Assembly (NCBI GenBank): GCA_965206595.1
Contig: OZ242214.1
Coordinates: forward strand, 2,656,001-2,720,000
Source of the DNA: Candidatus Latescibacterota bacterium
GTDB lineage: Bacteria > Latescibacterota > UBA2968 > UBA8231
DNA: 64,000 nucleotides
Direction: 5' to 3'
Shown here: piece after piece, positions 2,264-18,811 of the stretch
Numbering within the stretch: position 1 is the stretch's first letter
Layout of the letters: every line of letters starts with the position of its first letter
Translations under genes and position numbers: made by a program
The notes under the pieces: generated by a model
What the model was told of the DNA's origin: nothing
What the model saw: the letters and a program-made list of their open reading frames with translations, nothing else
Database searches by the model: none

Positions 2264-3613
2264 ATGAGACTCGTTTCCTCTTTTCTGCTCACCTGCGCCT
2301 TGACCCTGGGCGGCTGCTCCGACCACGATCCGGTTTCCTCCAACCAGCCGGAAGCGGCGGGCAAGCGGATATCCAGCAGCCTGACCTTGAGCGCCCCTGT
2401 CGCCGGGCTGGCCGAGTCCAGGCCCTCCAAGCCCCGCTTCGAGCCCGGACCGCTCGGCGCCGTCGAAGTCGAAGAGGGAGAGGCGGTACAGATCCGCTCG
2501 TTGCTCGCGCACACCGTAGCGCCATCCCTTGGCGTGCCATCCCGGCAAAGCATCGAGTTGGCCGTGGCGGACTTCGGACCCGTTCACGGCCGCGAGGTCG
2601 AGCTCGGAGAGCCTGTAGACGCCATGTGCTCGCCGGAAGGGGGAAGCGCGGGCGCAGGGCAGATCGTCGCCGACCCGCAGGTGCTCGGCGTCATCGGCAC
2701 CTCCTGCTCGGCCGCGGCGGTAGCTGCCTCCCCGGTGATCGACGAAGCGGGGCTGGTGATGATCTCGCCGTCCAACACCTCCCCTTCGCTCACTTCCGAT
2801 CTGGCCGGCAACGCGAATCCCGACTACCACCCCGGGTATTTCCGCGTTTCCATCAACGATCTCTACCAGGCGCAGGCAGTCGCCGACTTCGCCTACACCG
2901 TGCTGGGCCTGCGGAGCATGGCGGCCATCGACGACGGCGACCCGTACACGTCCGCCCTCGTCGGCGCCTTCGGGGACGCCTTCGAGGCCATCGGCGGAGC
3001 GATCGCGGCCACCGCCCGGATCGAGAAAGGGGAAACGGGCATGACCTCCGTCCTCGCGGAATTCGCGGCAGCCGGGCCGGACGGCATCTTCTTTCCGCTA
3101 TTCGAGGTGGAGGGCACCGCCTTCGCCGAGCAGGCGCTGGCGTTCGAGGGACTGGAAGACGCCACCCTCATTTCGGGTGCCGCCCTCCTTGTGTCCGAGT
3201 TCCTCGGCATGCCGCAGTCGGAGGGCATCTATTTCGCGGGGCCGGAGTCGGATCTCGGCTCGAACGTCAACGCGGCGACCGGCAAGAGCGCCGGGGAAGT
3301 GCTGGACGCATTCGCCGCGGCTCACGGCGGGTCTCCGGGGACTCCCTACTGGGCGCACTCCTACGACGCTGCGACGCTGCTGCTCGGCGCCGTCGAGTCC
3401 GTTGCCGTGGCCGAGGGCGGGAAGCTGTACGTCGACCGCGCCGCGCTACGGGAGGAGATCGCGGCCACGAACGGCTTCCAGGGCCTCGTCGGCACCCTCT
3501 CCTGCGACGAGTTCGGAGACTGCGGCACCGGGCGCATCAACATCTACCACCACACGGACACCGAAATCACCGATCCCGCGCAGCTGCCGCTGGTCTACCG
3601 GTTCGCTCCCTGA
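2264..3613 (+). CDS. Branched-chain amino acid-type (LivK/PBP1) substrate-binding lipoprotein
   Basis: Lipobox LGGC; motifs GVIGTSCS, MISPSNT, GYFRV and AHSYDA; GGAG RBS. Confidence 0.85.
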   Translation: MRLVSSFLLTCALTLGGCSDHDPVSSNQPEAAGKRISSSLTLSAPVAGLAESRPSKPRFEPGPLGAVEVEEGEAVQIRSLLAHTVAPSLGVPSRQSIELAVADFGPVHGREVELGEPVDAMCSPEGGSAGAGQIVADPQVLGVIGTSCSAAAVAASPVIDEAGLVMISPSNTSPSLTSDLAGNANPDYHPGYFRVSINDLYQAQAVADFAYTVLGLRSMAAIDDGDPYTSALVGAFGDAFEAIGGAIAATARIEKGETGMTSVLAEFAAAGPDGIFFPLFEVEGTAFAEQALAFEGLEDATLISGAALLVSEFLGMPQSEGIYFAGPESDLGSNVNAATGKSAGEVLDAFAAAHGGSPGTPYWAHSYDAATLLLGAVESVAVAEGGKLYVDRAALREEIAATNGFQGLVGTLSCDEFGDCGTGRINIYHHTDTEITDPAQLPLVYRFAP

Positions 3614-4289
3614 GCCTTGTCTCCCGGCTGCTGGGGCAGTTCCGCCAGGGACGGAGCTGGGAGGATTCGTCGATGCCGAGGGGCATCGGCCGCAGGACTC
3701 CAAAAGGCCCGGGATGGTGCTTCGTGAGCTGGGCATCCTACCCGATAGGGACCCGGCTGAACGGCATGCGGGTCCGCGTTCTCCCTGATCCACCCGAAGG
3801 GGAGCTCGTTCAGCGAGCGCCGTGCTGATTCCGCCACTGCGCCTGTAGCGGATAAATGGACCTTGTCGAGAACCAAGGATCTACTCGACCGCTCACCCAA
3901 CAGGACATGCCCGTGGGTGGGAAGACAGCCTACCGCGTTCGAAAGACTAGGAAAAGAAGAGGGATCAGGCAGGCGCGTTCAGCTCGAGGAATTACGCATC
4001 AACGCAACGCATTCCTCCGGTGTTCCAGTTGTAGAAGATGCCTCTTCAGGCAGGAAATCCTATTCTACGCTCTGAACCACTAACAGCCCGTTGATAAAGT
4101 TGCGCTGCAGGCGAGACCGAGTCATTGCGGTCGAAGACAAGGCGCGCGACCGAAGTGTAAAGCGGCTCGGGTAATTCCCATACGGTTCGGAAGTGGTGGT
4201 CACATCCCTGTCCCCCGGGGAGTCATCTTTCAACCGGTGCGTTTCGACCCGCGCAGAAATTCCAGCCCTCCAAGAGAGATCGCCGGAAA

Positions 4290-5039
4290 TCAACAAAGCC
4301 GAGGATCGGAATCCGGGGCCACTTCATGAGCGATGGCGGCAGCGAAATCCTCGTTGCCCAGATCCTCCAGCCGCCATCTGACTTCCGGCATCCGGGGAAA
4401 CCGGAATATGGTCGTCGTCATGCCGCGGCGCATGGCCAAGGGGATCTCGAATTCGGACATGCCCGAAGAAAGGCCTGTGCCAAGCGCCTTGAGCAGTGCT
4501 TCCTTCATTGTCCAGAGATTGTAGAACAGGTGGAGCTTGTGGCTTCCACGCGCCAATGCGAGCTCGGCCTTTTCGCCCGGGCCGAGCACGGTCCTTATCA
4601 GTCCGTCGAGGTCGCCACGGGGGACCCGTTCCTCGACATCCACGCCCAGCCGCCCTTCCGGCGCCACCGCGATCAATCCATGTCCGCCCCCGTGACTTAC
4701 GTTGAAGCTTATGGTCGCCGGCGCCCCATCCAACAGGGCAAACGGCTTTCCATAACTGGATACAGCGAATGCAAGTTGTTCGTTTCGGCAGCCGAGTCGC
4801 TTGCAGAGAATTGCGCGGAGCGCCGCACGGCACAAGGCGAATCGACGACGGGGACCGGCATGCAGGTAGCGTTGCCAGCGCGACTGTTCCTTTTCGTCAA
4901 GGTACTCAAGGGCGTCCGCCTCACGGGAAGCATGTGGCGAAAGATCGACGTATGTGACGGCGGCGTTGCCGATCTTTCTGAAGGGACGCCACCAGCACTC
5001 GGCAACGGAAGCTGGTATTGTTTGTCGGGGGAGCTGCAC
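4290..5039 (-). CDS. Sfp-type 4'-phosphopantetheinyl transferase (SupC-like position)
   Basis: Motifs YGKP, FNVSHG, LGVDVE and LWTMKEALLKALGTG. Confidence 0.9.
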   Translation of the reverse strand: MQLPRQTIPASVAECWWRPFRKIGNAAVTYVDLSPHASREADALEYLDEKEQSRWQRYLHAGPRRRFALCRAALRAILCKRLGCRNEQLAFAVSSYGKPFALLDGAPATISFNVSHGGGHGLIAVAPEGRLGVDVEERVPRGDLDGLIRTVLGPGEKAELALARGSHKLHLFYNLWTMKEALLKALGTGLSSGMSEFEIPLAMRRGMTTTIFRFPRMPEVRWRLEDLGNEDFAAAIAHEVAPDSDPRLC

Positions 5040-5101
5040 CAGTCCTTCACAAAGCCGCAGATCTTCGCTGGAGCAGCGGACGCCCCGTATCCAGGGGGCG
5101 T

Positions 5102-5290
5102 TCAGCCAGCGTGAGTATCGAGGTGCTCGATGAATTCCCGTACGCTGTTTTCATCCGCACAATCTTCGGGAGTAAACGTATCGTTGGATTCCTGAGCGAC
5201 CAGTTTCGCGAACGCAACGAGTTTCACGGAGGATACGCCGGCATCGATTAGGCTGAAATCCATATCCTCCCGCAGCCCTACGGGAATAAC
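5102..5290 (-). pseudogene. Free-standing ACP-like remnant, N-terminus lost
   Basis: Not in the ORF track. The minus frame reads DMDFSLIDAGVSSVKLVAFAKLVAQESNDTFTPEDCADENSVREFIEHLDTHAG*, with the ACP helix pattern and a GVSS serine motif. Confidence 0.7.
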
Positions 5291-5384
5291 GCCAACGTGG
5301 GCTCAGGATGGACAGCACCATCCATTCCCCGCACCCGTCCCCCGACTTCCGGCCAGGCCGTTGCCACCAACGGACCCGGCACTG

Positions 5385-5552
5385 CGCTGGGAGGTCAGCT
5401 GCCTTTGGGAATCGGCACGCCATGCCCACAATCGCTATCGGCTGTGCGGACCGGTTCCCCTTCTGTTGCCCGACCCCGGTTTCAGGAACGGGTTCTCCGG
5501 AAGGATCGAAGGACCCGTCCAGTCTCAACATGCTACCGGTTTCAGAATTCAT
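5385..5552 (-). pseudogene. N-terminal stub of a type I PKS ketosynthase
   Basis: MNSETG...QPIAIVGMACRFPKAADL is the canonical start of a KS domain; similarity is lost immediately afterwards. Confidence 0.8.
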
Positions 5553-6037
5553 CTCGGCAACCCTTTCTTCAAAATCAAAACACCGGTCGTTGCCCGGCCC
5601 CTCCATTTCTCCGACTCCAAACAATACCACGTGTATATGAAACCCACCAAGCGATACCGCCACCTCGTTGCGTGAGGATTCCGTCACGCCCTTGCCGGGG
5701 ATGGCGAAATACACTTGCGCGAAGACAAACCGCGCTACAATCAACGGGCTGCAATCGATTTGGTTATCTTTTCCGTCTTCGTGCGCACCTTACCGGTTTC
5801 TTTGGGAAACAGGAACCGCACCCACAAGAGCGGACGACTGCGAATACCTGAAAGCCAGTTCTTCGCCGGCACGGAATGATGCCGTGACCTTTGGCGCCGG
5901 TCCGAACTTCCATCCTCTGATCGACTGATGCGACCCTTGCCGCCGCGCAACGGCTGCCCTCTCGCGGGCCCTTCCCGCAACACCCCCCTACCACCCCGTC
6001 CGGTGACTTCCGGACCATACAAACCTGGAGCGCCTCG

Positions 6038-7195
6038 ATGGCCAAGATCCTAGTCGTAGACGACGAGCCGGACCTGGAGCTGCTGCTGCGGCAGAGATTC
6101 CGGCGCCGGACCCGGTCCGGAGAGCTCAGTCTCGTTTTCGCCCAGAACGGCGTCGAGGCCCTGCAGCAACTCGAGGAACACGACGACATCGACCTGGTGC
6201 TGTCGGACATCAACATGCCGGAAATGGACGGGCTCACCCTCCTGCAGCAGCTCGGCAGTCTGGACTACGACCTGCGGGCGGTGATGGTCACCGCGTACGG
6301 GGACATGAAGAACATCCGCACCGCCATGAACCGGGGGGCCTTCGATTTCGTGACCAAGCCGATCGACTTCGACGACCTCGAAGCGACGATCGCCAAGACC
6401 CTCGAGCACCTCGGGGTAATGCGGGAGGCGCTGCGGTCGCGGGACGAGCTGGTGGCCCTGCGGCAGGAGCTCGGGGTGGCGGCGCAGATGCAGGAGTCCA
6501 TTCTCCCCACGGACTTCCCCGTGAACCCCCGCTACGAGATACACGCCTCGATGACCCCGGCTCGCGAGGTCGGCGGCGACTTCTACGACTTCTTCCAGAT
6601 CGAGGGCGAGCGCATGGGGATCGTGGTGGCGGACGTGTCGGGGAAGGGAGTGCCGGCCGCCCTCTTCATGATGGTGAGCCGGACCCTCATGAAGGGGACC
6701 GCCATCGGCGAGAGCAACCCGGCGAAGTGCCTCAACGAGGTCAACGAGCTGCTGACCGAGTCGAACAAGGAGTCGATGTTCGTCACCGTGTTCTACACTA
6801 CCCTCGACCCGGTCACGGGGCGCGTCGAGTTCGCCAACGCCGGGCACAACCTGCCGTACGTGGTCAAGCAGTCCGGCGAGGTGCGGCAGATATCCTGCGA
6901 CCCGGGGCTGGTCCTGGGGGTGCTGCCCTCCTTCGAGTTCCCGGAGGGTAACATCGAGCTGGACCCGGGGGACGTGCTGTTCTTCTACACCGACGGCGTC
7001 AACGAGGCGATGGACGAGAACGGCGTCGAGTTCGGCGACGAAAGGCTGACCCAAGTCCTGGCGCAGGCCGCGGGTGCCAGCGCCGCCGAGTTCAGCAGCC
7101 GGGTGGTGCAGGCGGTGCAGGATCACGCCGGCGAAGCCCCCCAGTCCGACGACATAACCTGCATGGCCGTGCGCTACATCGGGGATCCTGCGTAG
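6038..7195 (+). CDS. Response regulator receiver fused to SpoIIE/RsbU-type PP2C phosphatase
   Basis: REC motifs ILVVDDE, LSDINMPEMDG and FVTKP. PP2C motifs EVGGDFYD, ADVSGKG, ANAGH, YTDGVNEA and SDDIT. Confidence 0.93.
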   Translation: MAKILVVDDEPDLELLLRQRFRRRTRSGELSLVFAQNGVEALQQLEEHDDIDLVLSDINMPEMDGLTLLQQLGSLDYDLRAVMVTAYGDMKNIRTAMNRGAFDFVTKPIDFDDLEATIAKTLEHLGVMREALRSRDELVALRQELGVAAQMQESILPTDFPVNPRYEIHASMTPAREVGGDFYDFFQIEGERMGIVVADVSGKGVPAALFMMVSRTLMKGTAIGESNPAKCLNEVNELLTESNKESMFVTVFYTTLDPVTGRVEFANAGHNLPYVVKQSGEVRQISCDPGLVLGVLPSFEFPEGNIELDPGDVLFFYTDGVNEAMDENGVEFGDERLTQVLAQAAGASAAEFSSRVVQAVQDHAGEAPQSDDITCMAVRYIGDPA

Positions 7196-8383
7196 ATGGG
7201 TCGTTTCGCCCTCCTCGCCGCGGCAGCGGCGGGACTGGCGCCTGTCGCCGCGTACGCCCCCCCCCCGGCCGTCAGCGACGGGGTGTTCCCCGACTCGATC
7301 CTCTTCGGACAGTCCGCGGCCCTGAGCGGTCCGGCCAGAGAACTGGGCCGCAACATGAACCTCGGGATCCGCGCCGCCTTCGAGGAAGCCAACCGCTCCG
7401 GCGGCATCCACGGCCGCCAGCTCCGGCTCCTCGTGCGGGACGACGGGTACGAGCCCGAGGCCGCGGTCGCCAACACCAGGGAGCTGATCGCGCTCGGCGT
7501 CTTCGGCCTGATCGGCGCCGTGGGCACCCCCACCTCCAACGCCGCCGAACCGATTGCCAGCGGCGCCTCGGTCCCCTACGTCGGCCCCTTCACCGGCGCC
7601 GACCTGCTCAGGGGCCGGGACCAGCGCTTCGTCGTCAACGTCCGCGCCTCGTACTACCAGGAGACCGAGGAGATGGTGGAGCGGCTGACCGCGGACCTGG
7701 GATTCCGTCGCATCGCCATCCTCTACCAGGACGACAGCTACGGAACGGCCGGCCTCACCGGCGTGCGCCGGGCCCTCGACCGGCGCGGCATGAAACTGGT
7801 CGGCGAAGTCACCTACATGCGCAACACCGTCGCCGTGAAGCGGGCCCTTCTCGGCCTCCTGGACAGCGATCCGGAAGCGGTCATCATCATCGGCGCCTAC
7901 CGGCCGGCCGCCCACTTCATCAAGTGGGCCCGGAAGATCGGCATGGAAGCGGTCTTCGTGAACATATCCTTCGTCGGCAGCAACGCCCTGCTCGAGGAGC
8001 TGGGCCGGGCGGGCGACGGGGTGGTGGTCACCCAGGTCGTGCCGTTCCCCCGCGACACCGGCATTCCGGTAGTTGCCCGATATCACGCCGCCCTGAAAGC
8101 GGTCGACGAGGCGGGGCAACCGGGGTTCGTCTCCCTCGAGGGGTACCTGGCAGGGCGCCTCGCCGCCGATGCCCTGCGCGCTTCCACCGCCCCCGCCGGG
8201 GGCGGTGAGGCGGCCCGGCCGACCCGTGAGGCTTTCCTGCGAACCCTCGAGGAGTCCGGCCCCATCGACCTGGGCGGCTTCGAGGTCGAGTACGGTCCCG
8301 GGGACAACCAGGGGTCCGACCGGGTGTTCCTGACCACGATCCGCGGCGGCGGTTTCGTCCCGGTGACGCGGCTGTTGCGATGA
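7196..8383 (+). CDS. Periplasmic binding protein type 1 (orphan, probably sensory)
   Basis: Signal peptide; motifs FGQSAALSGP, DDGYEP, GAVGTPT, NVRASY and SLEGYLAG; no ABC permease nearby. Confidence 0.88.
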   Translation: MGRFALLAAAAAGLAPVAAYAPPPAVSDGVFPDSILFGQSAALSGPARELGRNMNLGIRAAFEEANRSGGIHGRQLRLLVRDDGYEPEAAVANTRELIALGVFGLIGAVGTPTSNAAEPIASGASVPYVGPFTGADLLRGRDQRFVVNVRASYYQETEEMVERLTADLGFRRIAILYQDDSYGTAGLTGVRRALDRRGMKLVGEVTYMRNTVAVKRALLGLLDSDPEAVIIIGAYRPAAHFIKWARKIGMEAVFVNISFVGSNALLEELGRAGDGVVVTQVVPFPRDTGIPVVARYHAALKAVDEAGQPGFVSLEGYLAGRLAADALRASTAPAGGGEAARPTREAFLRTLEESGPIDLGGFEVEYGPGDNQGSDRVFLTTIRGGGFVPVTRLLR

Positions 8384-10611
8384 ACATCTCCGAGCAACGC
8401 ATCCAATCCACCTTCGAAAGCGTCCTGGCGCGGCTCCCCGGCCCCCTCGGCGAACGCCTCCGAAAAGCGACCGGGGGACGGTTCGGCATCGGCAGCAAGA
8501 TCGCCGTGGTCCTGGGCGGCGGCGTCACCCTGACCATCGGCGCCGTCGTTCTCGCGCTGGGGCTGATGAGAATCGTCAGCACCCGCCAGAGCGAGGTCAC
8601 CGAAGGGTACATGCCGGCCCTGGTCGCCGCCTTCGAGGTCGCCCGGAGCAGCTCCGAGTTGGTGCGGGCTTCCCCCCGGCTCCTCTCCGCCGACGATCCC
8701 GACGACCTCGGGTTGGTGATGTGGGACGTGGTGCGGGAGGAGGAGACTTTGCGGAAATGGCTTTCCGAAGTAAGGCGCGCCGAATCGAAGGGAGGTGCCG
8801 AGGGAGACATCGGAAGCGCGGTCGTGCCGCTGGCCGACAGCCTGGTGGAGAGCATCAGCCAGATCCAGGAGTCGGTCGGGCGCAGGATGCAGTACCGGGC
8901 CCTGCTCCGGAAGCTCGAAGGGCAGGTCGAGAGCCTCGGCCTCGAACTGCAGCTATTGCTCGAGGAGCTGGTCGACGATCAGCATTTCTTCATGCACACC
9001 GGGCTCCGCGGTCTCGACGATGCCCCGGCCTCCCCGGACCGGAGGACGTCGAGGGCCGAGCTCGATCACTACGCCGGCCTCCTCGACTTCCAGGCTTCGC
9101 AGAACGTCACCACCACCCTCATCCAGCAGGCGATGACGGAGAACGACCCGGAGCTGCTGCGGGCGAACCGGGAACGGGTGGAAACGGCCATGAGCGACGT
9201 GCGCCGGGCCCTGGGCGGGGTCAGGCCGGCGATCAGGTCCCTGCTGCAGCCGCAGGTGGAGAAGCTGACCGGCTTCTACGCCGCCCCGGACGGGGCCTTC
9301 GAAGCCCGCACCCGCGAGCTCGAGGAGATCCGCCGCTCCGAAGACCTCCTGGCCCGCAACCAGCAGACCACCGCCGACCTCGTGGCCATGGTGGAAGGGC
9401 TGGTGAAGGAGGCCGAGGTCTCCACCCAGAACGCCGCCAATCGCTCCCGCAACCTGGTGCGCCTCGGGTTCTGGTTTCTGCTCGGGGTCACCCTCCTCAC
9501 CCTCGTCGCCGCCTACTTCGTCTGGACGTTGTTCGGCAAGCGCCTGCTGGCCCGGTTGGGCAGGCTCTTCGACGCCACCCAACGGATGTCGAAGGGGGAT
9601 CTCGAAGTGCAGGTGGAGATCGAAGGGAACGACGAGGTGACCGACATGGCCGGGGCCCTGGAGGTCTTCCGGCAGCACGCCGTCGAGGTGCAGCGGCTCA
9701 ACCTCGTCGAGAAGCTGGCCGCGGAGGTCCAGGCCAAGAACGCCGCGCTCGAGACCACCAACTCCGAGCTGGAGACCACCCTGGAAGACCTCAAGCGCAC
9801 CCAGCAGCAGGTCATCAGCCAGGAAAAGCTCGCTTCCCTGGGGGCCCTCACCGCCGGCATCGCCCACGAGATCAGGAACCCCCTGAACTTCGTCAACAAC
9901 TTCGCCGGCCTTTCGTCCGACCTGATCGACGAGCTGAGGGAAGAGCTGAAGGGAGAGGGGGAGGGCGGCATGGACCAAGAGCTGATCGACGAGATCCTCG
10001 ACGACCTCGGCGGCAACGCGGGCAAGGTGAAGGAGCACGGGGAGCGGGCCAACCGCATCGTCGAGGGCATGCTGGCCCACTCCCGCAACGAGGCGGGACA
10101 GGTGGAATCAGTGGACATCAACCTGCTGGTCGACGAATACGCCAAGCTCGCCTACCACGGACTAAGGGGCACGGATTCGACCTTCAACGTCAACCTGGTC
10201 CAGGAGTACGACGAGGGCGCCGGGCGGGTCGAGGCGATCACCCGGGACCTGAGCCGGGTCTTCCTCAACGTGGTGACGAACGCCTGCCACGCCACTGCCG
10301 CCCGCGCCAGGGAGTCCGACGGCTCCTACAAGCCCAAGGTGTGGCTCAGGACCGAGGGCAGCGAGGACGGCGTTCGCGTTTCCATCCGCGACAACGGCAC
10401 CGGGATTCCCGACGAGATCGTCGACAGGATCTTCGACCCGTTCTTCACCACCAAGTCCGGCACCCAGGGGACCGGACTCGGACTTTCGATCTCCCACGAG
10501 ATCGTCCGCGAGCACGGGGGGGAGCTCCAGGTGGAGACCGAAGAGGGGGAATTCACCGAATTCAGGATAGTCCTGCCGAGGAAGAGCTTTTCCGCGGCTC
10601 CAGCTTCCTGA
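8380..10611 (+). CDS. Membrane sensor histidine kinase with large helical periplasmic domain and HAMP
   Basis: Two TM segments, HAMP (GNDEVTDM), H-box GIAHEIRNPLNF, N-box NVVTNACHA, G1 DNGTG, F-box FDPFFTTK, G2 GTGLGL; ATGA overlap with the upstream gene. Confidence 0.93.
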   Translation: MNISEQRIQSTFESVLARLPGPLGERLRKATGGRFGIGSKIAVVLGGGVTLTIGAVVLALGLMRIVSTRQSEVTEGYMPALVAAFEVARSSSELVRASPRLLSADDPDDLGLVMWDVVREEETLRKWLSEVRRAESKGGAEGDIGSAVVPLADSLVESISQIQESVGRRMQYRALLRKLEGQVESLGLELQLLLEELVDDQHFFMHTGLRGLDDAPASPDRRTSRAELDHYAGLLDFQASQNVTTTLIQQAMTENDPELLRANRERVETAMSDVRRALGGVRPAIRSLLQPQVEKLTGFYAAPDGAFEARTRELEEIRRSEDLLARNQQTTADLVAMVEGLVKEAEVSTQNAANRSRNLVRLGFWFLLGVTLLTLVAAYFVWTLFGKRLLARLGRLFDATQRMSKGDLEVQVEIEGNDEVTDMAGALEVFRQHAVEVQRLNLVEKLAAEVQAKNAALETTNSELETTLEDLKRTQQQVISQEKLASLGALTAGIAHEIRNPLNFVNNFAGLSSDLIDELREELKGEGEGGMDQELIDEILDDLGGNAGKVKEHGERANRIVEGMLAHSRNEAGQVESVDINLLVDEYAKLAYHGLRGTDSTFNVNLVQEYDEGAGRVEAITRDLSRVFLNVVTNACHATAARARESDGSYKPKVWLRTEGSEDGVRVSIRDNGTGIPDEIVDRIFDPFFTTKSGTQGTGLGLSISHEIVREHGGELQVETEEGEFTEFRIVLPRKSFSAAPAS

Positions 10612-10851
10612 CCCCCCGCCGTTGCCGAGGGGGGTGATTGGACCTCCCCGGACAACCCTCCCCCGAGGGGCGCGGCCCCGGTTTCGCTGCCTCCGGTCCC
10701 ACCTCGGACCGGGACCTGACTTTCATCGATCTACCCCAGCTGACCGGAACCGGTGTCGAAGCGGAAATTGCCACCGACCGTATCTGGCGAAAACAGCGTC
10801 GGACCATCTTTTCAGAACCGGAAAAACCAGACCTGGAACAGCGAGGACAGA

Positions 10852-11625
10852 ATGAAAAAACCATGCGCTGCGGGGATGGCCGCCGTACTGCTGTCCGTCT
10901 CGGCCTCTGCCCCCGCCCGCGCCGAGTTCCACCTGCAGTACGGCAAGCTGCTGAATCCATTCTCGGCCGCGGAGCAACCGACCCTTGTCTTCACCGTGCA
11001 GCAAGCGTCCGGGTGGAAATTCGGCGACAGCTTCTTCTTCATCGACTACCTCGACGACGGCGGAGAGGACGGCTTCAACGACCGGGAGTTCTACGCCGAG
11101 TGGTACCCGACCCTGAGCTTGGGCAAGCTGACCGGCAAGGAGTTCCGCTTCGGTCCGATCGGGGATTTTTCCCTGGTGGCCGGGTTCAACGCCAGCGGCG
11201 ACGGCAAAGTCGTGAAGTACCTGCCTGGTCTCAGGGCTTCCTGGAACCTGCCGGGGCTCCTGTTCCTGAATACGGACCTGACCGCCTATATAGACGACAA
11301 CACCGGCATCGACAGCGGAGGCCCCCCCGATACCGGCAACAGCTTCATGTGCGACGTCAGCTGGGCTTTCCCCTTCGAGGCCGGCAGCCAGTCGTTTGCC
11401 ATCGCCGGCCATGCCGAGTACGTCGGCGGCACCACTGACGAGCTTGGCGGCGACGTCAACGGGTGGATTCTCGCTCAGCCGCAGTTCACCTGGGATCTGG
11501 GCAAGGCCCTATTCGCAGCGCCCCACCGGCTCCTGGCCGGCATCGAGTATCAGTACTGGCTCAACAAGCTGGGAACGGACCAAGACGAGAGCACGGCGCA
11601 GCTGCTGCTGGTTTGGCGCCCTTGA
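10852..11625 (+). CDS. Tsx-like nucleoside-specific outer-membrane channel (DUF5020/Tsx family)
   Basis: Signal peptide; motifs GWKFGDSFFFID, FYAEWYP, QPQFTWDLG and GIEYQYWLNKLG; amphipathic C-terminal beta-strand. Confidence 0.8.
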   Translation: MKKPCAAGMAAVLLSVSASAPARAEFHLQYGKLLNPFSAAEQPTLVFTVQQASGWKFGDSFFFIDYLDDGGEDGFNDREFYAEWYPTLSLGKLTGKEFRFGPIGDFSLVAGFNASGDGKVVKYLPGLRASWNLPGLLFLNTDLTAYIDDNTGIDSGGPPDTGNSFMCDVSWAFPFEAGSQSFAIAGHAEYVGGTTDELGGDVNGWILAQPQFTWDLGKALFAAPHRLLAGIEYQYWLNKLGTDQDESTAQLLLVWRP

Positions 11626-11742
11626 AGGGCGTGTTATGGCGGGATCGGGGTTCGCAAAGCTTTCAGCATATCTTCGCCGGATCGTTCGTTCCAAACTTAA
11701 TTTTTTTCATTTTGGTTTTATCTTACAAGCTATTGGGAGACA

Positions 11743-13500
11743 ATGGGTTTGGATACAGTAAGAGCGAATGAAAACATCCGCTTCGAGCCCGACGAGCGCC
11801 CTCCCCACTCGGTCGCGGCCGGGGTCGGATTTCAGGCCGCGGTCGTCGTCCTGGCGCCGGTGGTGCTCAGTGCCGTCATAATTGCCCGGGCAGCCAACCA
11901 GCCGGCGAGCTACCTGACCTGGGTCGCCTTTGCGGCGCTGATGGTCAGCGGCGTGAGCACGGTGCTGCAAGCGGTCCGGATCGGGCGTATCGGGGCGGGG
12001 CACGTGCTCATCATGGGCACCTCCGGAGCCTTCATCGCGGTCTGCATCACGGCGCTGGTGAAGGGCGGACCCTCCCTGATGGCGAGCCTCATCGTCGTTT
12101 CGTCGCTGTTTCAGTTTCTCCTGGCGGCGCGGCTGTCGCTGGTGCGCCGGATCATCACCCCGGTCGTCTCCGGCACGGTGATCATGCTGATCGCCGTCAC
12201 CGTCATGCCGGTGGTCTTCGACCTCCTGGGGGACGTTCCGGATGGCACGCCTGCGGTTGCGGCACCGGCCGCGGCCGCGGCTACCCTCGCCGCCCTTCTG
12301 GTTCTGGCGCTGCGCGCCCCGGTGGCCTGGCGCCTTTGGGCACCGCTGGTCGCCATCGCGGTCGGCTGCGCCGTCTCCGCCCCCTTGGGGCTGTACGACG
12401 TTCAGCCTGTAGTCGAAGCCGCCTGGATCGGCTTTCCCGACTACGCCTGGCCGGGACTGGACCTGTCCCTCAGCGCCGAGTTCTGGGCGCTGCTGCCGGC
12501 GTTCGTGGTCGTCACCATGGTAGGGGCGATCGAGACCATCGGCGACGGCGTCGCCATTCAACGGATCTCGCGACGCCGGCCGCGGGCTACCGATTTCCGC
12601 CTCGTCCAGGGCGCCCTCAACGCCGACGGGGTGGGCAATCTGCTCTCCGGGCTCGTCGGCACGCCCCCCAATACGACCTACTCCACCAGCATATCCCTCG
12701 CCGAGCTGACCGGTGTCGCCGCACGCCGGGTCGGGGTGTACATCGGCGTCCTCTTCGTGCTGCTGGCCTTGTCGCCCAAGGTGACGGCCCTCATCATCGC
12801 CATTCCCAACCCGGTGGGGACCGCCTACGTAACCCTGCTGATAGGCATCCTCTTCGTGCAGGGAATGAAGATCGTCGTCGGGGACGGCCTCGATCACCGC
12901 AAGGCCGCGGTGGTGGGCCTGTCTTTCTGGATCGGCGTCGGCTTCCAGAACCAGGTGATCTTCGCCGACCTGCTCGGCGACACCTTGGGCACCTTGCTAG
13001 GCAACGGCATGACCGCCGGGGGGATCGTGGCGATCGCGCTTACCGCCTTCCTGGAGCTGACGGCGCCCCGCAGCCGGCGCCTGAAGGTCGAGCTGGCCGC
13101 CTCGGCGCTGCCGGAGATCGACGCCTTCCTGCGCGCCTTCGCCGCCAGGGCCGGCTGGAAGGAGCCGTCGGAGGGGCGGCTGCGCTCCGCGGGAGAGGAG
13201 ACACTGGCGGTCCTGCTGCAGCAGTTCGAAGGGGAAGGGGCGGAGCCCGAGGGGCGGAGCCTGATCGTCACCGCCCGCCTGGCCGAGAAGGGTGTGGAGC
13301 TGGATTTCCTCGCCGCCTCGAGTGCCGAGAACCTCGAGGACCGGCTCGCCTACCTCAGCGAGCAGCCCGAGCGGGTCGACGAGCACGAGATCTCCTACCG
13401 CCTGTTGCGGCATTACGCCGCTTCGGTGCGGCACCAGAAATACCACGACGTCGACATCGTCTCGGTCCTGGTCGAGGAGGCGCCCGAGTCCCGCCTGTGA
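11743..13500 (+). CDS. NCS2 (xanthine/uracil) permease fused to a C-terminal degenerate RsbW-like HATPase domain
   Basis: NCS2 motifs GTSGAFI, ITPVVSG, IETIGD, ADGVGN and PNTTYS..LTGVAAR. The roughly 140-aa tail (LPEIDAFL..AGEETL..LLRHYA..V) follows the RsbW pattern. Confidence 0.85.
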   Translation: MGLDTVRANENIRFEPDERPPHSVAAGVGFQAAVVVLAPVVLSAVIIARAANQPASYLTWVAFAALMVSGVSTVLQAVRIGRIGAGHVLIMGTSGAFIAVCITALVKGGPSLMASLIVVSSLFQFLLAARLSLVRRIITPVVSGTVIMLIAVTVMPVVFDLLGDVPDGTPAVAAPAAAAATLAALLVLALRAPVAWRLWAPLVAIAVGCAVSAPLGLYDVQPVVEAAWIGFPDYAWPGLDLSLSAEFWALLPAFVVVTMVGAIETIGDGVAIQRISRRRPRATDFRLVQGALNADGVGNLLSGLVGTPPNTTYSTSISLAELTGVAARRVGVYIGVLFVLLALSPKVTALIIAIPNPVGTAYVTLLIGILFVQGMKIVVGDGLDHRKAAVVGLSFWIGVGFQNQVIFADLLGDTLGTLLGNGMTAGGIVAIALTAFLELTAPRSRRLKVELAASALPEIDAFLRAFAARAGWKEPSEGRLRSAGEETLAVLLQQFEGEGAEPEGRSLIVTARLAEKGVELDFLAASSAENLEDRLAYLSEQPERVDEHEISYRLLRHYAASVRHQKYHDVDIVSVLVEEAPESRL

Positions 13501-13577
13501 CACTCACGTCGCGTAAAGAGATTCGACGCCGGAGCGGTCGGGGCTCGGTTCGGAAGCGCCCGGGCTCCTACCTTCAG

Positions 13578-15436
13578 CCTTTGTTATTCATTCAACCCGC
13601 GCATAAGCGGACATAGGCGCTTCCGAGACCCCTTCGCTTAGCCTCAGAGGCTTGCGTCCCTTCTATAGTCGGCTTTTTGGGTAGAGCCGTCTCCTTATCT
13701 CTACCGACCTTGTTGAAATTGTACGCGCCTTCTCGAAGACGCTTGCCTTTGCGAGCCCATCATCCCGACCGACCCGGCCTGCGCTTACGCCATCGCCGCG
13801 TCCACCGGTTTGAGCGTGGCCAGAAATCTCCACAGACGATCCCAGGCAGCCGCCGTCCCTTGGGTCAGGATGACGCCCACCCTGCGCCCATGCAAGGTGA
13901 CGCGGGACGGCAGGCGCAGGTAGCGCCGTCGAAAACTGTCCAGGCTCAGGGCCGTCGTCGAGCGTCCGTATGTGCGGGGCCGCCCGCGTCGGGCCTCGGC
14001 GCGTTCGGCGGCCTGGCGGCCCAGGTGAAGCAGGTTGTAGGCCAGCAGGTTCAAGGTCAGAAGCGCCTGGTTGGCAGCGAAGGCATCCCGGGACGGGGTG
14101 CGCTGACGCGGCTCTCGACCCCGGTAGTGTTGCTTGCGACGGGTGGTAGAGGAGAGCTGAGGCTGGAGGGTGGAGCTCAACTCGCCGAGCATGCGCTCGA
14201 AAAGGCCGCGCTGACGATAAAAGGCGACCAGGTCGCGGCCGCTCATCGTCTGGGGACTCTGGTCGGTGATCAGGAAGAAGTGGCGGGCGATGGGCAGCTC
14301 TTCCGTCTCGGAAGGGACCAGGACCAACACCACCCGCCGGGCTGCGCCCAGGACCTGGCTTGATAGCGCAGCTCGCGACAGCGAAAACCCTCTTCCCGCA
14401 GCTCTTCCGGGTGCTGCGCCAGCTCCTGCTGATAGCCTTCCACCCAGGCACGAGCCAGCTCCTCCAGGCGCGCATTCTTCTTGATGCGCGCCACGTACGA
14501 GGTGTCGGCCCGCGCTTCCAGCTCACTCAGGAAAGACCCGCTCACCGAGGCCGCGTCGAAGCGCAGGATGAGGCGCCGGGCCAGATGCGACTGAATCCAG
14601 TCCAAGCGCTTGCCGAGAGCCTCTGAGGCGCCCTCATGGGCGTGCACGTTGCCCGGCCGCAGCACGGCACCGAAGAAATCGCCCGTCTGCGCCGAGCCGA
14701 GGAGCAGGGGATGGTACCCCGAGGCGTGGAAGTAGCCGTTGTATTCGACCCCCGCCTGGTGCCCGTGCGCCGGCATCGGCAGGGCATCCATGTCGACGGC
14801 CAACTCCTCGTATTTCATCCGTCCTTCCAGCAGCCGGCAACGAGACCGGGCGCTGCGCAGGACGGCTTCCTCCAACACCTCGCGGTTATAGGCAGTCGAG
14901 GCTTGCTCGAGCAGGCGCGACAGCGTCGGCTGACTGGCCAGTCCCTGCGGCCGGTCTTCGTCGCCGCTGCGCAACGGCGCCTGCCCTTTGCGATCGCTGA
15001 CCGCCAGACGCAGGATCGGATCTTGGCGCAACGCGTCGGCGTCGGCGGCGTGGGTCCAGCCCTGTGCCAGCAGCACGATCTGTGTGCGCAGCAGCTCCGG
15101 CAGCGGGTGCGTGATCTGGTCTTGGGTACGGAGATCCTCGAAGTGGGCGTCGACCCAATCCAGAACCCGGCTGTGTTCGAGCAGTTGACGCAACATCAGC
15201 GCACCGGTGTCGCTGCCAAGGTGGGTGGGGCGGGCTTCGATGTGGATGGAGCGGTTGAAAGACGGCTGAATCGGCCCGGCTTGCTCGGACTCGGTGTGTG
15301 ACGGTAATTCACCCATTGGGTGTCCTACTGTGTGATGGGTTCAAAGGGCGATACTGCCTTGTGTTTCCCTCTGAAATCTAAGCATGGGAGGCACCCAGTA
15401 CAGCCCTCTCCACTAAAATTCCATGAATAACAAGGG
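13578..15436 (-). mobile_element. IS1380-family insertion sequence
   Basis: 14-bp IRs CCTTTGTTATTCAT and ATGAATAACAAGGG (1 mismatch); 5-bp target duplication TTCAG at 13573-13577 and 15437-15441. Confidence 0.92.
13785..15316 (-). pseudogene. IS1380 DDE transposase, frameshifted near 14340
   Basis: Motifs LGSDTG, LASQPTLSR, VDMDA, LRPGNVH, RFDAA and YRQRG.FE are split over ORFs 14270..15316 and 13785..14333. One extra C restores WAQPRRVV. Confidence 0.88.
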
Positions 15437-15498
15437 TTCAGACTGCCTGCCCCACTCCCACCATCTTTCGGCCAAAGCCGAAGGATCAGAACTGGAGG

Positions 15499-16644
15499 TC
15501 AAGCTCTGGTCCAGGGCTCCTTCAGGGACGGATGTTCAAGAACCAGCCGGACAGTTTCGTTTGTGTCGTTGTAGAACTTGCTGATCTGCTCTTCCGCATT
15601 CCGAGCACCCGCCAGAACTTCCACCAATGGACACCTTATGTGAAATGGGTGCCACTGGTTTGGCTCCCGTACTTTTTCATCCCCGAGATGATCGTAAAAC
15701 GTCCAGCCGTCCGGGAAACTCACGGACTTCAGATACGCCACGAGCTTTCGGTAAGCGGGAACTGCTGGCGCGGGATGCAGATCCTCGTCGAGACTGAGAA
15801 CAACACAAGCGTCCGGGCCGCGGTTGCGGTCCACTGGTTCCGTGCAATGATCCGATCCATCCAGGAGAACACCGACGAACAGGCCGGGGTCCCAACCGGT
15901 ACCACCCGACTTGCCGCGTACCTGGAAACCCAGACGACCCCATTTGTCCACAACCTTTCTCTCGACAGTACATGGCCATTCCTGACCAGACACGGCCCAC
16001 ATCATCTTCTTCAGGTTTTCGTGGAAGTCGGCTACAAGGAAGTAGCCCTCGATAACTTTCTGTTCCAACCTGTCCATCGGTCCGAGTCCTCTCCTCTCAA
16101 GCAAGTGTCTGAAATCCTCGACTACGAAATGCACCACCGGATCGTGGCTGTCGGACTGCAGCCGCAACCACTTCTCCAGAAGTTCATGAATATGATGCCA
16201 ACACAGCTTCAGATCCGGCTTCTGCTGATGTTGTCCGGGATACGCGGTAATGAGAACAACCGGTGCTTCATTGAACGGCGGGGGCGCGTGGTTCCTGTAA
16301 TCGCCAAGCTGATCTTCTCGCAGCCAAGACCAAACCTTGTGTTCGAAGACAATCCCACGCTTTCCATCCGAGCAGGTCATGTCGGGACGGACGGGCCACA
16401 TGCCTTCCCCCCGCGGGAACGATGTCTGGGTCTCCCATCGCAGCGCCTCCCTGTCAAGAGCCGACATACTGAGGCCCTCCTCGCTGAGGTAGTCGAGGAA
16501 GCATTCGTCAAAACCGGTGTTCGACAATATCCAGCAGAATGCATTCGTGATGAAGTCCTCGATCTTGCCCGGAGCCAAAGAATCGAGCAGACCCGGAGCG
16601 AGACCGGTTTTCAGCCGGTAACTCGCTGAGGATGTGGTGGTCAT
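15499..16644 (-). CDS. PD-(D/E)XK nuclease superfamily protein
   Basis: EDFITNAF, RPDM, IVFEHKV and QLGDY pattern typical of PDDEXK_4-like nucleases; strong AGGAG RBS. Confidence 0.7.
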   Translation of the reverse strand: MTTTSSASYRLKTGLAPGLLDSLAPGKIEDFITNAFCWILSNTGFDECFLDYLSEEGLSMSALDREALRWETQTSFPRGEGMWPVRPDMTCSDGKRGIVFEHKVWSWLREDQLGDYRNHAPPPFNEAPVVLITAYPGQHQQKPDLKLCWHHIHELLEKWLRLQSDSHDPVVHFVVEDFRHLLERRGLGPMDRLEQKVIEGYFLVADFHENLKKMMWAVSGQEWPCTVERKVVDKWGRLGFQVRGKSGGTGWDPGLFVGVLLDGSDHCTEPVDRNRGPDACVVLSLDEDLHPAPAVPAYRKLVAYLKSVSFPDGWTFYDHLGDEKVREPNQWHPFHIRCPLVEVLAGARNAEEQISKFYNDTNETVRLVLEHPSLKEPWTRA

Positions 16645-16729
16645 GACTTCTCCTTTCTCCCTTTATTTACTCTCCGGTCTTGCAGTCAACTCCCACCTGA
16701 ATGGATATCGTGCGGTTCTTCCTCATTCT

Positions 16730-17335
16730 TCAGATACCGAACTCAAATGAATTACCCAACGCACAGAGCCGTTCGACAAAATAACGAGCACTAGGGCAAT
16801 TGAGGTGCTGAGCCGCCCGTCTGACGTCAAACCCTTGATCGCGAATGAATTTTCTGGAAAAAATGAGTCGGTTTCTCCCTGGCCCTCTGCCTTTTGCGTC
16901 CCGGAGCTCCTTCAGCCGGTCCCAAGGCATTCCAGTTGCGGTTTCCGGGTCAACCTCACAGAAGGTGCTGTCTCCCAACCACTGCCGCATGGCCTTGGTA
17001 TCGGCGAGAAACCAGGATTCCATCGCCTTCTTCGCAATCGCGACCAGATCAATGCCCTGGGAACCAATGATTTTCTTGCGCGCTTGCACACATCGCGCAC
17101 AGGTCTCGGGATCGAGGTCGGCAAGCACAACCACCTTTTCCGGACTTGCCGTGTTCCTGAGATTCTTGACGAAGGTCCCGATGTTTCGACTACACATATT
17201 GCCATTGCCAGCCGCATCAACCACTGGATCGAGCACTTCAAGGTTGCATTCTTCACGCAGCCATTTTCGAAACAGTTCGCTTTCGACCAGTCGTTTTTCT
17301 GATGCCCCCTCCACCACGAACCCCACGGTCACCAT
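16730..17335 (-). CDS. DUF4276/Toprim-like protein (ATPase partner)
   Basis: Motifs FVVEGASE, LADLD and MESWFLAD; overlaps the ATPase stop codon. Confidence 0.75.
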   Translation of the reverse strand: MVTVGFVVEGASEKRLVESELFRKWLREECNLEVLDPVVDAAGNGNMCSRNIGTFVKNLRNTASPEKVVVLADLDPETCARCVQARKKIIGSQGIDLVAIAKKAMESWFLADTKAMRQWLGDSTFCEVDPETATGMPWDRLKELRDAKGRGPGRNRLIFSRKFIRDQGFDVRRAAQHLNCPSARYFVERLCALGNSFEFGI

Positions 17336-18477
17336 GGCAGCCCCCCGTCCAGAAGGTTGGAAAGCCAAGCCTCATCAAGACTCAATGAATCAAGGTTTTC
17401 TTGGGTGAAGTTCCCCGCATCGGCAGGCTTCATTCCCGTGCGGCCTTCGACCTTATCCACTAAAATGAGCTCATCGGGGTTTATCGCTCGAACAACGGAC
17501 TCGCTATGGGTGGTCAACCAGATAGGGTTTTCAGGCGACGCCCGCTGCCGCATCAAATCTATCAGCTCGCGGATGGCTTTTGCGTGAAGCCCTCTCTCAG
17601 GTTCCTCGATTAACGTCATTCCACCACCAGCAGGCTGGTCGAGAACGGCTACCAGCAAACAGAGCGCGTACATCGTCCCATCTGAAACCAAGTGGGCCGG
17701 GAACCGCTTCCTCGTCCCTTCCTCCTTGAAAAGGAGGGCAGCACTGCTATCCAGTCTCTGCTTTTCAGTCTGGATATTCTCGATTCCTGGTACAATCATT
17801 TCCATCCAATCCGAAATATCCCCCCGTACCAATCGATCTCCCTCCAAGCGATTCAAGACACTCGCCAGATTGTGCCCCTTGCGCTCTAACCTTGTTGGAT
17901 CAAGGTCGGATTTATCCGGCTCCTTTGCACCCGCAGGATCAATTCGGTATATATGCAAATTTCTCAGGAGTTCGGTGAGCGGCTCCTCCCCGAATATCGA
18001 GAGACCCGAATAGATGTTCGGAAGTCCTGAGAGTTGACGGGTATTGGACTCTTCTCCAACGACTATCGCGTTTTTTCCCCTTTTTCGCTTAAAGCGTTGT
18101 TTCCCGTTGACCCTCAAATATTCCTCGATTTCAGGTTCTTTCCCGAGATCGAAAATACTCAACAAATAGTGAGACGTTGCGAGCTCTTCTCCCTGCTCTT
18201 GGGAAAAATCGCCTTCGAGTTCAAAAGTGAACTTTCTGGAATTCGGCGCATAACGCTTCGCGGATTGTATATTGGCAAAGCCTCCATGCTCGCGCAGGGC
18301 GGTTTCAATCCCGTTACGCACAAACAGGCTGACAAAGTCCAACGCATCGAAAAAATTGCTCTTGCCCGAGCCATTCGCTCCAGCGAATACCGAGAAGGGG
18401 GAAAGCCCCTTTATCTCCAGAGCATCAATACTCTTGAAGTTCTCGATCCTCAAGGTTTGTATGGTTTTCTTCGTCAT
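17329..18477 (-). CDS. ABC/SMC-like ATPase (AAA_15/AAA_21 type)
   Basis: Motifs IENFKSI, Walker A GANGSGKS, signature VSDGT, Walker B LIEEPERGLH and H-loop TTHS. Confidence 0.9.
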   Translation of the reverse strand: MTKKTIQTLRIENFKSIDALEIKGLSPFSVFAGANGSGKSNFFDALDFVSLFVRNGIETALREHGGFANIQSAKRYAPNSRKFTFELEGDFSQEQGEELATSHYLLSIFDLGKEPEIEEYLRVNGKQRFKRKRGKNAIVVGEESNTRQLSGLPNIYSGLSIFGEEPLTELLRNLHIYRIDPAGAKEPDKSDLDPTRLERKGHNLASVLNRLEGDRLVRGDISDWMEMIVPGIENIQTEKQRLDSSAALLFKEEGTRKRFPAHLVSDGTMYALCLLVAVLDQPAGGGMTLIEEPERGLHAKAIRELIDLMRQRASPENPIWLTTHSESVVRAINPDELILVDKVEGRTGMKPADAGNFTQENLDSLSLDEAWLSNLLDGGLPW

Positions 18478-18811
18478 ATCAGGATCCGTTCCGTGCCTTT
18501 GCTGGGCTGGCGAAGACCGTCGAAAAACATTTCCTGCCTCCACATCGCACCTGTGAAAAGGCCACTTTCCACTCCGCAGAGGATCAATCCCGACGCAACT
18601 ACCGCCCTGCTACGGCGCAGATCCGCGGTTGCCCCTGCCGGTGGAAATCAAGGGTTTAAATTTCGAAGCTATGGCATCATGGGTAGTCCGCAACATGCAG
18701 GTAACAGAACCCGAGGAAAAGTCCGATCTTGAACGGTCCATGGGCTCGCATGACATCTCCTGTCGACCGCGGGGAGTTCGTGGGCTCGCTTCAACAGGCT
18801 GCCCCGCATCT

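Follow-up and report, generated by a model that had tools for sequence, protein, structure and literature searches.

A 64-kb window of a Candidatus Latescibacterota genome (contig OZ242214.1, positions 2,656,001 to 2,720,000; coordinates below count from the first nucleotide of this window) holds five co-oriented + strand genes that fill positions 6038–13500. Open reading frame (ORF) calls and Pfam and NCBIfam scans identify their products, in order, as a response regulator with a PP2C phosphatase domain (REC-PP2C), a periplasmic binding protein (PBP), a HAMP-domain sensor kinase, a Tsx-like porin and an NCS2 permease, as an earlier note on this DNA had described. On balance, and with some reserve, we favor reading this locus as a PBP-dependent sensor with phosphatase output that lies beside an uptake route, the permease of which has an intrinsic regulatory tail with the fold of RsbW. 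We regard the locus as a real lineage-specific module that comes with an undescribed transporter tail domain, and partner switching by its components as speculative.

The proposed mechanism comprises two units that would have been inherited together by one lineage whose genomes are labeled Gemmatimonadota or Latescibacterota. In the first, the orphan Peripla_BP_6 binding protein would capture a small molecule in the periplasm and dock on the kinase at its TorS-like helical region in that compartment. Phosphorylation of the receiver (REC) domain of REC-PP2C by the kinase would follow, such that the output would be dephosphorylation of some target protein and not transcription. In the second unit, the Tsx-type outer-membrane channel would feed the NCS2-fold inner-membrane permease, which belongs to a large subfamily defined by a changed substrate motif in transmembrane segment 10 (TM10) and by a C-terminal domain that has the predicted RsbW/SpoIIAB fold and lacks ATP-binding motifs. 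The tail would serve as an intrinsic regulatory or partner-binding module, in a role like that of STAS domains on SulP/SLC26 transporters. A functional link between sensor and transporter is plausible; we infer this link, as well as the role of the tail, from the observations given below.

The DNA covered is that of the 64-kb window, and the structures modeled here are AlphaFold2 predictions. Related loci are numbered L001 to L079 (79 genome loci from a scan for the tailed permease), with genes called simply as longest ORFs, and P-numbers denote proteins from a protein collection.

The binding protein, kinase and phosphatase genes

The first three genes are closely packed. The response regulator gene (6038–7195, +) encodes a 385-aa protein with a REC domain (Response_reg, 92.9 bits) and a SpoIIE-type PP2C output domain (186.6 bits), both above the Pfam cut-offs, and the Pfam scan finds no DNA-binding domain in it. 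Its translation carries the acidic pocket of a receiver (DDE.. and SDINMP) and the metal motifs of a PP2C phosphatase (GGDFYD, DVSGKG, TDG and DDIT). The PBP gene (7196–8383, +) begins one base past the stop of this gene (7195/7196), and the kinase gene (8380–10611, +) overlaps the PBP gene by four bases (8380–8383). The earlier note had proposed that periplasmic ligand detection is relayed to a phosphatase instead of a DNA-binding regulator. Because the genes abut or overlap and the REC and PP2C domains are intact, such a relay is supported; docking of the PBP on the kinase and phosphotransfer from kinase to REC would follow from gene adjacency and from precedents.

Fusion of a receiver to a PPM phosphatase is an established architecture (PMC12143880), and the window regulator resembles in this respect RsbK/RsbY of Bacillus cereus and the PP2C-type RssB of Pseudomonas, in which a receiver is joined to a SpoIIE/PPM phosphatase that is presumably controlled by a kinase. 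Unlike the situation in these two systems, scanning of the window ORFs reveals no STAS, anti-sigma or sigma genes near the window REC-PP2C, and the window kinase appears to sense the periplasm and to depend on a binding protein. Two plasmid-borne relatives of REC-PP2C likewise lack a STAS neighbor: one from Parabacteroides (44% identity) follows three HAMP kinases, and one from Aureimonas (32% identity) has a Hanks-type kinase as its neighbor within a type VI secretion cluster.

The 395-aa PBP has a signal peptide and is a member of Peripla_BP_6 (191.3 bits in Pfam), with 4kv7 as the closest solved structure (E 4e-62). It is an orphan in that no ABC permease or ATPase gene adjoins its gene in the window. 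The 743-aa kinase comprises a transmembrane segment, a helical periplasmic domain of ~300 aa, a second transmembrane segment, and HAMP, HisKA and HATPase_c domains. These last three are the only Pfam domains detected, with REC and HPt absent; the periplasmic domain is recognized in the translation as a helical region of ~300 residues flanked by two hydrophobic segments. Residues 50–503 align to positions 15–480 of the NCBIfam TorS model, with a whole-protein E of 5.7e-45, a match that falls far short of the equivalog cut-off. A search of the sensor region against PDB sequences gives no match.

Binding protein-stimulated receptors, as listed in PMC8050422, include TorT/TorS, in which TorT belongs to Peripla_BP_1, and one Peripla_BP_6 case, BasB/BasT. 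The window genes share with TorT/TorS, LuxP/LuxQ and BasB/BasT an orphan binding-protein gene that overlaps or abuts the gene of a receptor with a long helical periplasmic domain, in the window apparently of the TorS type (PMC8050422). They differ from the Tor system in three respects: the window binding protein is of the Peripla_BP_6 and not the Peripla_BP_1 type (PMC8050422), the kinase lacks the REC and HPt domains of the hybrid kinase TorS, and the regulator is a phosphatase, unlike DNA-binding TorR.

Plasmid sequences from outside the window lineage lend support to the TorT/TorS-like logic that the earlier note had assigned to the PBP and the helical-sensor kinase. In tblastn searches with the sensor region, two relatives are matched over more than 80% of its length, and both exceed the Pfam TorS_sensor_domain cut-off of 27 bits: an Azospirillum kinase (26.5% identity, E 1e-9; 33.4 bits) and a Terrarubrum chemoreceptor (23.8% identity, E 3e-7; 29.1 bits). 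In each case the receptor gene is preceded by a binding-protein gene, and the two share four bases. When the PBP itself is used as the tblastn query against plasmids (PLSDB), 202 records are retrieved, of which six contexts were inspected (PLSDB gene tables are incomplete). The next gene encodes a chemoreceptor in four of the six, with the respective PBPs of Terrarubrum (Peripla_BP_6; gene overlapping that of the TorS-sensor chemoreceptor), Ruegeria TM1040, Phaeobacter inhibens and Thioclava showing 54%, 54.4%, 51.9% and 53.0% identity to the window PBP. None of the six contexts has a matching-type ABC permease beside the PBP gene, so the idea that this PBP serves an ABC transporter encoded elsewhere finds no support.

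Since four of six contexts place the gene before a chemoreceptor and none pairs it with a matching ABC permease, the PBP subfamily looks like a dedicated receptor partner. Judged from these sequences, the PBP and the TorS-like sensor form a module that is combined with more than one kind of output. All of the component families are known, and the recurrent pairing of Peripla_BP_6 with a TorS-type sensor and its union with REC-PP2C appear to be undescribed.

The porin, the permease and its C-terminal tail

For the porin gene (10852–11625, +; ORF open from 10753), the likely start codon is the ATG at 10852: a GAGGA lies 5 nt ahead of it, and translation from there yields a signal peptide-like N-terminus. 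Its 257-aa product scores 23.2–23.6 bits against Channel_Tsx (PF03502), below the cut-off of 27.2, and ESM Atlas groups it with Channel_Tsx clusters (0.98, 230/256 shared features) in which 45–86% of the members carry Channel_Tsx. The permease gene (11743–13500, +), whose ATG is preceded by an AT-rich stretch and GGGAG, encodes 585 aa with a membrane part at residues ~20–440 and a cytoplasmic C-terminal tail. Residues 28–401 match Xan_ur_permease (PF00860) with 168.3 bits (cut-off 27), and the protein scores 192 bits against NCBIfam TIGR00801 (cut-off 291.8) and is also below the xanthine-permease cut-off.

An AlphaFold2 model of the whole permease (pLDDT 86.6, from a 33-sequence alignment) finds UapA (5i6c), SVCT1 and UraA as its top Foldseek matches (E ~1e-15, TMt 0.70–0.86), followed by SLC26 transporters. 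In this predicted structure, the permease has the 14-TM core/gate fold of UraA and UapA. It shares family, fold and the TM8 Glu/Asp pair with UapA, XanQ/PbuX and UraA, and a Tsx-like channel adjoins it; a phmmer alignment sets permease “aietigd” opposite UapA “acecigd” at the TM8 pair. Unlike in these transporters, the TM10 motif is changed. The NAT signature in TM10 reads [Q/E/P]-N-x-G-x-x-x-x-T-[R/K/G], and it is absent from the permease, where “ttystsislaeltg” aligns with UapA “ttfaqnngvialtr” and the consensus over 33 family members is YSxSxSLxxLTG. Because this motif is changed and the scores are under the NCBIfam xanthine-permease/NCS2 cut-offs, the substrate cannot be taken to be a nucleobase.

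The ligand of the PBP raises a related question. When aligned with Escherichia coli LivJ (21% identity), members of the PBP subfamily carry Leu, Thr, Gly and Ser where LivJ has its ligand contacts Y18, S79, T102 and E226. Absence of these contacts argues weakly against a standard alpha-amino acid, and nothing in the comparison favors a nucleobase. Nucleobase or nucleoside sensing, as put forward in the earlier note, is therefore unproven and draws on family names: the permease lacks the NAT TM10 motif, relatives of the PBP pair with chemoreceptors, and no riboswitch was found in the window or in seven diverse loci. Genes with phosphoribosyltransferase domains adjoin the tailed permease in one locus (L059:10517–11053, −) and lie near it in another (L035:5810–6325, +), and are the sole neighborhood hint toward nucleobase salvage.

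The C-terminal tail (residues 441–585, ~145 aa; 13063–13497, +) has no Pfam match even at E<=10, and no NCBIfam model recognizes it. A model of the tail alone (pLDDT 88.3, from a 34-sequence alignment) has the topology strand-helix-helix-strand-strand-loop-helix-strand-strand. The 13 best among the Foldseek matches listed for this model are all RsbW, UsfX or SpoIIAB, including RsbW 6m37 (E 1e-6), UsfX 8ih8 and SpoIIAB 1tid, 1l0o and 1th8, with TMq 0.61–0.68, probability 1.0, identity of 10–16% and E values of 1e-6 to 1e-4. The catalytic domains of histidine kinases match far worse, with TMq ~0.4. By this prediction, then, the tail has the RsbW/SpoIIAB fold. Sequence methods yield fainter signals. 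One family fragment, P0202, matches HATPase_c_2 (PF13581) over profile positions 5–123 of 127 with E 8.9e-6 and 26.2 bits (cut-off 27.4), and an ESM Atlas search with the tail gives a weak lead, a rank-4 cluster with HATPase_c_2 in 15% of its members. A profile of 34 tails searched against PDB sequences returns only matches at chance level, such as GAL4 and RpoD (E >= 0.02); RsbW-type chains are not among them.

Binding of ATP by GHKL proteins involves an N box, which places an Asn in helix 2, and the G1 and G2 glycine loops. Columns conserved in at least 90% of 34 tails are F22, W32, R39, E45, E46, L51, L67, E81, F82, N90, S111, R113, L114, L115, A119, V122, H124, Y127 and V137 (E45/E46, N90 and H124 of the tail correspond to E485/E486, N530 and H564 of the permease). 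No Asn is conserved in helix 2 (tail residues 36–57), nor is any Gly conserved. The N, G1 and G2 boxes therefore seem to be absent, as judged by topology and not by residue-level superposition, and because the helix-2 Asn and the glycine loops are not conserved the tail is probably a pseudokinase. The earlier note had called the tail both RsbW-like and a pseudokinase. The first label stands by fold (Foldseek E 1e-6) and not by Pfam; the second is probably right, on the same topological grounds.

The tail shares its predicted fold and ~140-aa size with RsbW, SpoIIAB and UsfX (HATPase_c_2), and differs from them in that it is fused C-terminally to a 14-TM permease and lacks the helix-2 Asn and Gly-rich loops. 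A parallel is offered by SulP/SLC26 transporters, which share the 7+7 TM fold and also carry a C-terminal cytoplasmic domain from the partner-switching toolkit (PMC8256260). The window permease departs from these in having an appendage with the anti-sigma-factor (STAS-binding) fold instead of a STAS domain, and in having a membrane domain of the NCS2 and not the SulP type. That a large NCS2 subfamily is marked by a tail with the RsbW fold appears to be undescribed. No published description of an NCS2 permease with an RsbW/GHKL-type tail or with a partner-switch link was found in full text (subscription journals and preprint supplements were outside the scope of this search), and family members are named at source as “hypothetical protein” or as plain NCS2/xanthine permeases.

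Two candidates for other tail architectures were set aside. A TRAP DctM-tail fusion, P0193 (246 aa), has a low-complexity joint and probably results from a chimera or frameshift in the ORF call; were it true, it would be a second transporter family with the tail domain. An internal tail in P0157 also looks like a frameshifted or chimeric call and not like another architecture.

It is possible, though in our estimation less probable than the favored reading, that the tail acts without any protein partner, either as a metabolite-sensing degenerate nucleotide pocket or as a dimerizer like STAS in SLC26. Our confidences in the several alternatives overlap, and this one concerns the tail only. It would explain why positions of the former pocket are very highly conserved (E485/E486 in helix 2, N530 after strand 3, and a RLLRHYA..VRHQKYH segment), and it fits with the presence of the tail in every family member among the matches listed, whatever the neighboring genes. 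RsbW and SpoIIAB act as dimers, as do NCS2 transporters. A UraA dimer is described in PMC5539350. However, neither a ligand nor an interface has been identified, and the mapping of conserved residues to the pocket is based on topology and not on residue-level structural alignment.

Family spread, synteny and competing explanations

The tail defines a large family. Used alone as a query, it retrieves 1352 proteins at E<=0.001 in a collection clustered at 90% identity, and all 120 among the matches listed carry PF00860 and nothing else. At 50% identity, at least 519 representatives are retrieved; among the 150 of these that are listed, 25 are 542–650 aa long with a C-terminal match, and the majority of the rest seem to be fragments. 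Five of 19 members that were checked include the end of the permease domain. Because all 79 genome loci with a tailed permease are metagenome-assembled genomes (MAGs), the family appears to be confined to uncultivated lineages. Their labels are Chloroflexota (mostly Dehalococcoidia), Gemmatimonadota, Latescibacterota, Actinomycetota, Acidobacteriota and Pseudomonadota.

Searches of the neighborhoods with the window proteins (phmmer; REC-PP2C at E<=1e-5) locate the regulator, PBP, kinase and porin beside the tailed permease in seven of 79 loci, L001–L006 and, to the contig end, L007. Proteins of the seven loci are 77–99% identical to those of the window. In a FastTree phylogeny of 74 permeases (rows shorter than 520 or longer than 700 aa were dropped, including that of L004, a mis-called ORF), the window permease groups with six syntenic permeases in a single clade (SH-like support 100). 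Because the seven syntenic loci form one clade, the association of sensor and transporter counts as one evolutionary event and, on this tree, arose once. The block is nonetheless kept in these genomes while the downstream flank differs between two groups, one made up of the window, L001 and L002 and the other of L003–L007, and this recurrence with differing flanks means that the five-gene arrangement exceeds chance.

Outside this clade, the picture is mostly negative. None of the window sensor genes or the porin is found near the permease in the other 72 of 79 loci, so that homologs of the five genes are not syntenic beyond one lineage, and the neighborhood analysis that the earlier note had suggested for NCS2 fusions with an RsbW-like domain yields an adjacent STAS gene in only two of 79 loci, which belong to one other lineage. 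No common neighbor of the tailed permease emerges across the 79 loci. Most frequent is a generic short-chain dehydrogenase, with a cluster that spans 19 loci, and lesser clusters of ABC ATPases, amidohydrolases, aminotransferases and DUF1330 proteins each occur in 10 or fewer.

These distributions bear on a second alternative, which we consider somewhat more doubtful than a self-sufficient tail: that the sensor and transport genes are functionally unrelated neighbors kept by descent, with the sensor controlling something else via its phosphatase. The single origin of the association speaks for this explanation, as does the lack of sensor genes at 72 of the 79 tailed permeases, and the intergenic gaps before the porin and permease genes agree with it. 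Moreover, relatives of the PBP pair with chemoreceptors, and no Tsx or NCS2 gene is annotated near them in the four plasmid contexts concerned. Yet the block has kept all five genes adjacent and in one orientation, even though the flank downstream of it was replaced between the two sub-clades, and the insertion in the window that bears an insertion sequence (IS) landed just outside the block. It is also suggestive that a regulator without DNA-binding output lies beside a transporter with a regulatory tail, although here we can only infer a connection.

The earlier note had gone further, and had envisioned that the phosphatase and the RsbW-like tail act antagonistically in a partner switch that gates or reads out the permease. 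In its full form, REC-PP2C would dephosphorylate a STAS protein encoded elsewhere, and this protein would bind the RsbW-like tail and gate or report on the transporter. We consider this unlikely. The fold of the tail is indeed that of STAS-binding proteins, and such PP2C phosphatases classically act on phospho-STAS proteins (PMC11418112; PMC12143880). In addition, 112-aa STAS genes directly follow the tailed permease in convergent orientation in L009 (10519–10857, −; 68.5 bits) and L018 (1414–1752, −; 65.3 bits), both of them Dehalococcoidia records; their products contain a ...YVSSAGLRV... segment, and they are candidate partners for the tail. However, these two of 79 loci are near-copies of each other, amount to one event and could reflect chance. 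As the earlier note had also stated, there is no STAS gene in the window, the one part of this genome covered, as far as selected ORFs show: neither STAS nor HATPase_c_2 is matched in the 109 window ORFs scanned with Pfam (sets of 16 and 40 ORFs and one of 53 small ORFs), and STAS is equally absent from 39 flank ORFs scanned from L001–L006. The L009 and L018 genes emerged from a scan of 147 small ORFs, drawn from 61 of the 72 non-syntenic loci and lying no more than 3.5 kb from the permease; a third STAS gene lies 5 kb from the tailed permease in L061.

Other observations also go against a partner switch of this kind. The remaining 72 loci have no PP2C relative in the vicinity of the permease; SpoIIE-type genes are near it in seven of 79 loci only, all of one clade. 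Neither of the two plasmid relatives of REC-PP2C has STAS beside it, and one adjoins a Hanks-type kinase. A tail that lacks conserved ATP-binding residues could not make the phospho-STAS that the phosphatase needs. Because the tail probably cannot phosphorylate a STAS protein, the central antagonism between kinase and phosphatase loses its support.

A non-catalytic role of the tail in docking STAS proteins is possible. In an extended version, which strikes us as a shade more improbable still than the full switch, the RsbW-fold tail would dock STAS proteins whose phosphorylation is set by the TorS-like kinase and REC-PP2C, such that the ligand would gate its own uptake posttranslationally. If this were true, an NCS2-fold subfamily in at least six phyla would be wired into partner-switching networks without kinase activity, and the tail would be the mirror image of STAS on SulP/SLC26 transporters. 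Finally, it is very unlikely that the tail is itself the substrate of REC-PP2C, phosphorylated by a Ser/Thr kinase at, for example, S551 or S561 and relieved of the phosphate upon periplasmic ligand sensing, given that its nearly invariant serines, the adjoining phosphatase gene in the window lineage and the pairing of one REC-PP2C relative with a Hanks-type kinase instead of STAS are offset by conservation of the same serines in 72 loci without the phosphatase and by the lack of any identified kinase gene for it in the block.

The reading that we favor, a PBP-dependent sensor with phosphatase output beside a permease with an intrinsic regulatory tail, has to accommodate several points that weigh against it. 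A noncoding gap of ~240 bases precedes the porin gene and one of 117 bases, including an AT-rich stretch, precedes the permease gene, and these gaps suggest separate transcription units. Synteny is limited to seven of 79 loci in one clade, for which common ancestry could be a sufficient explanation. A substrate for the PP2C domain was not found. The kinase scores 14.6 bits against the Pfam TorS_sensor_domain model (PF21689), below the cut-off of 27. In two of the six plasmid contexts inspected, those of PBP relatives from Ralstonia (39.5% identity) and Eleftheria (41.5%), the gene tables, which are incomplete, list no receptor and no ABC transporter next to the PBP gene. The tail structure, furthermore, is a predicted model, and the region of the ATP lid has the lowest confidence.

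Flanking features and implications

A scan of positions 5600–13900 for promoters and terminators gives counts equal to those in shuffled sequence. The region is GC-rich, with values of 0.62–0.70 around the module. Immediately downstream of the module and outside it, a split IS1380-family transposase (13785–15316, −; NF033539) marks the boundary. The earlier note had placed an IS1380 here, and the family assignment is correct, with the transposase divided between two ORFs at 14270–15316 (−; 176.9 bits, cut-off 180) and 13785–14333 (−; 45.5 bits). They cover model positions 2–285 and 309–412, and there is no intact transposase gene. The element is absent at the corresponding position in the closest relatives, L001 and L002. 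Relative to these two loci, window positions 13500–18800 (GC 0.54–0.59) are an insertion between the permease gene and the AAT/cupin genes. Besides IS1380, the insertion contains an unannotated 381-aa ORF (15499–16644, −), a DUF4276 gene (16730–17368, −) and an AAA_21 ATPase gene (17329–18543, −), the last of which matches models of anti-phage ATPases, among them MAD3 and the retron Eco8 effector, below threshold. A second DUF4276 and AAA_21 ATPase pair with the same domains is found at 29096–30888 (−), and the pair may be a defense-type module present twice in 64 kb.

Upstream of the module, ~2.4 kb of lower GC content (3614–6037) contain a 4'-phosphopantetheinyl transferase gene (4290–5039, −), also present upstream of the block in L001, and an ORF with a ketoacyl-synthase-like fragment (5151–5744, −). 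Farther upstream lies a gene for a second Peripla_BP_6 protein (2264–3613, +; 107.4 bits in Pfam) with a lipoprotein-like N-terminus, possibly an accessory, which is found upstream of the block in L001 and L003 as well. BLASTP reveals no significant similarity between it and the PBP of the module (best E 0.066). An ammonium transporter gene and a 103-aa ORF precede the second Peripla_BP_6 gene in L003 (29–2941), which may hint at a nitrogen-related context. In the window, between the second Peripla_BP_6 gene and a PPDK-like gene, a match to the Rfam group II intron D1-D4-6 model occurs at 2063–2219 (−; 70.1 bits, gathering score 49), with no intron-encoded protein evident beside it.

Within the window clade, the near-identical blocks of L001–L007 (~80% or more protein identity) are labeled Candidatus Latescibacterota or Gemmatimonadaceae, and the submitter taxonomy is thus inconsistent. 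The porin of L003 is split into two weak ORF matches. Outside this clade, the most specific conserved neighbor of the tailed permease is a DUF1330 gene (95–104 aa), directly downstream in six loci by Pfam and in seven by clustering. The six, labeled Gemmatimonadota, Latescibacterota and Chloroflexota, are L021:2301–2588, L023:10593–10880, L027:10582–10869, L029:3308–3595, L030:1624–1911 and L042:10462–10776. Paralog expansion is evident from tandem arrays: four copies in L011 (8693–16225), two adjacent copies in L073, and two copies within 10 kb in each of L040 and L025. A Dehalococcoidia subclade (L015:5925–8309, −; L024, L026, L028 and L009:16492–18864) encodes a single ~790-aa protein with GAF, PAS, HisKA, HATPase_c, REC and DNA-binding Trans_reg_C domains, and its gene is divergent from that of the tailed permease in four loci. 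Large Peripla_BP_6 fusion proteins (800–890 aa) are encoded ~3 kb downstream in this subclade.

The posttranslational regulation of bacterial NCS2/NAT transporters is little understood. A conserved cytoplasmic domain that no Pfam or NCBIfam model recognizes, carried by an NCS2 subfamily of at least 519 clusters, provides a testable handle on such regulation. The pairing of Peripla_BP_6 proteins with TorS-like sensors, which serves chemoreceptors in Alphaproteobacteria and is found here with a kinase-phosphatase output, widens the catalog of binding protein-stimulated receptors. Likewise, the occurrence of a tail with an anti-sigma-kinase fold on NCS2 permeases, as opposed to STAS on the sister SulP/SLC26 transporters, bears on how parts of partner-switching systems are reused.

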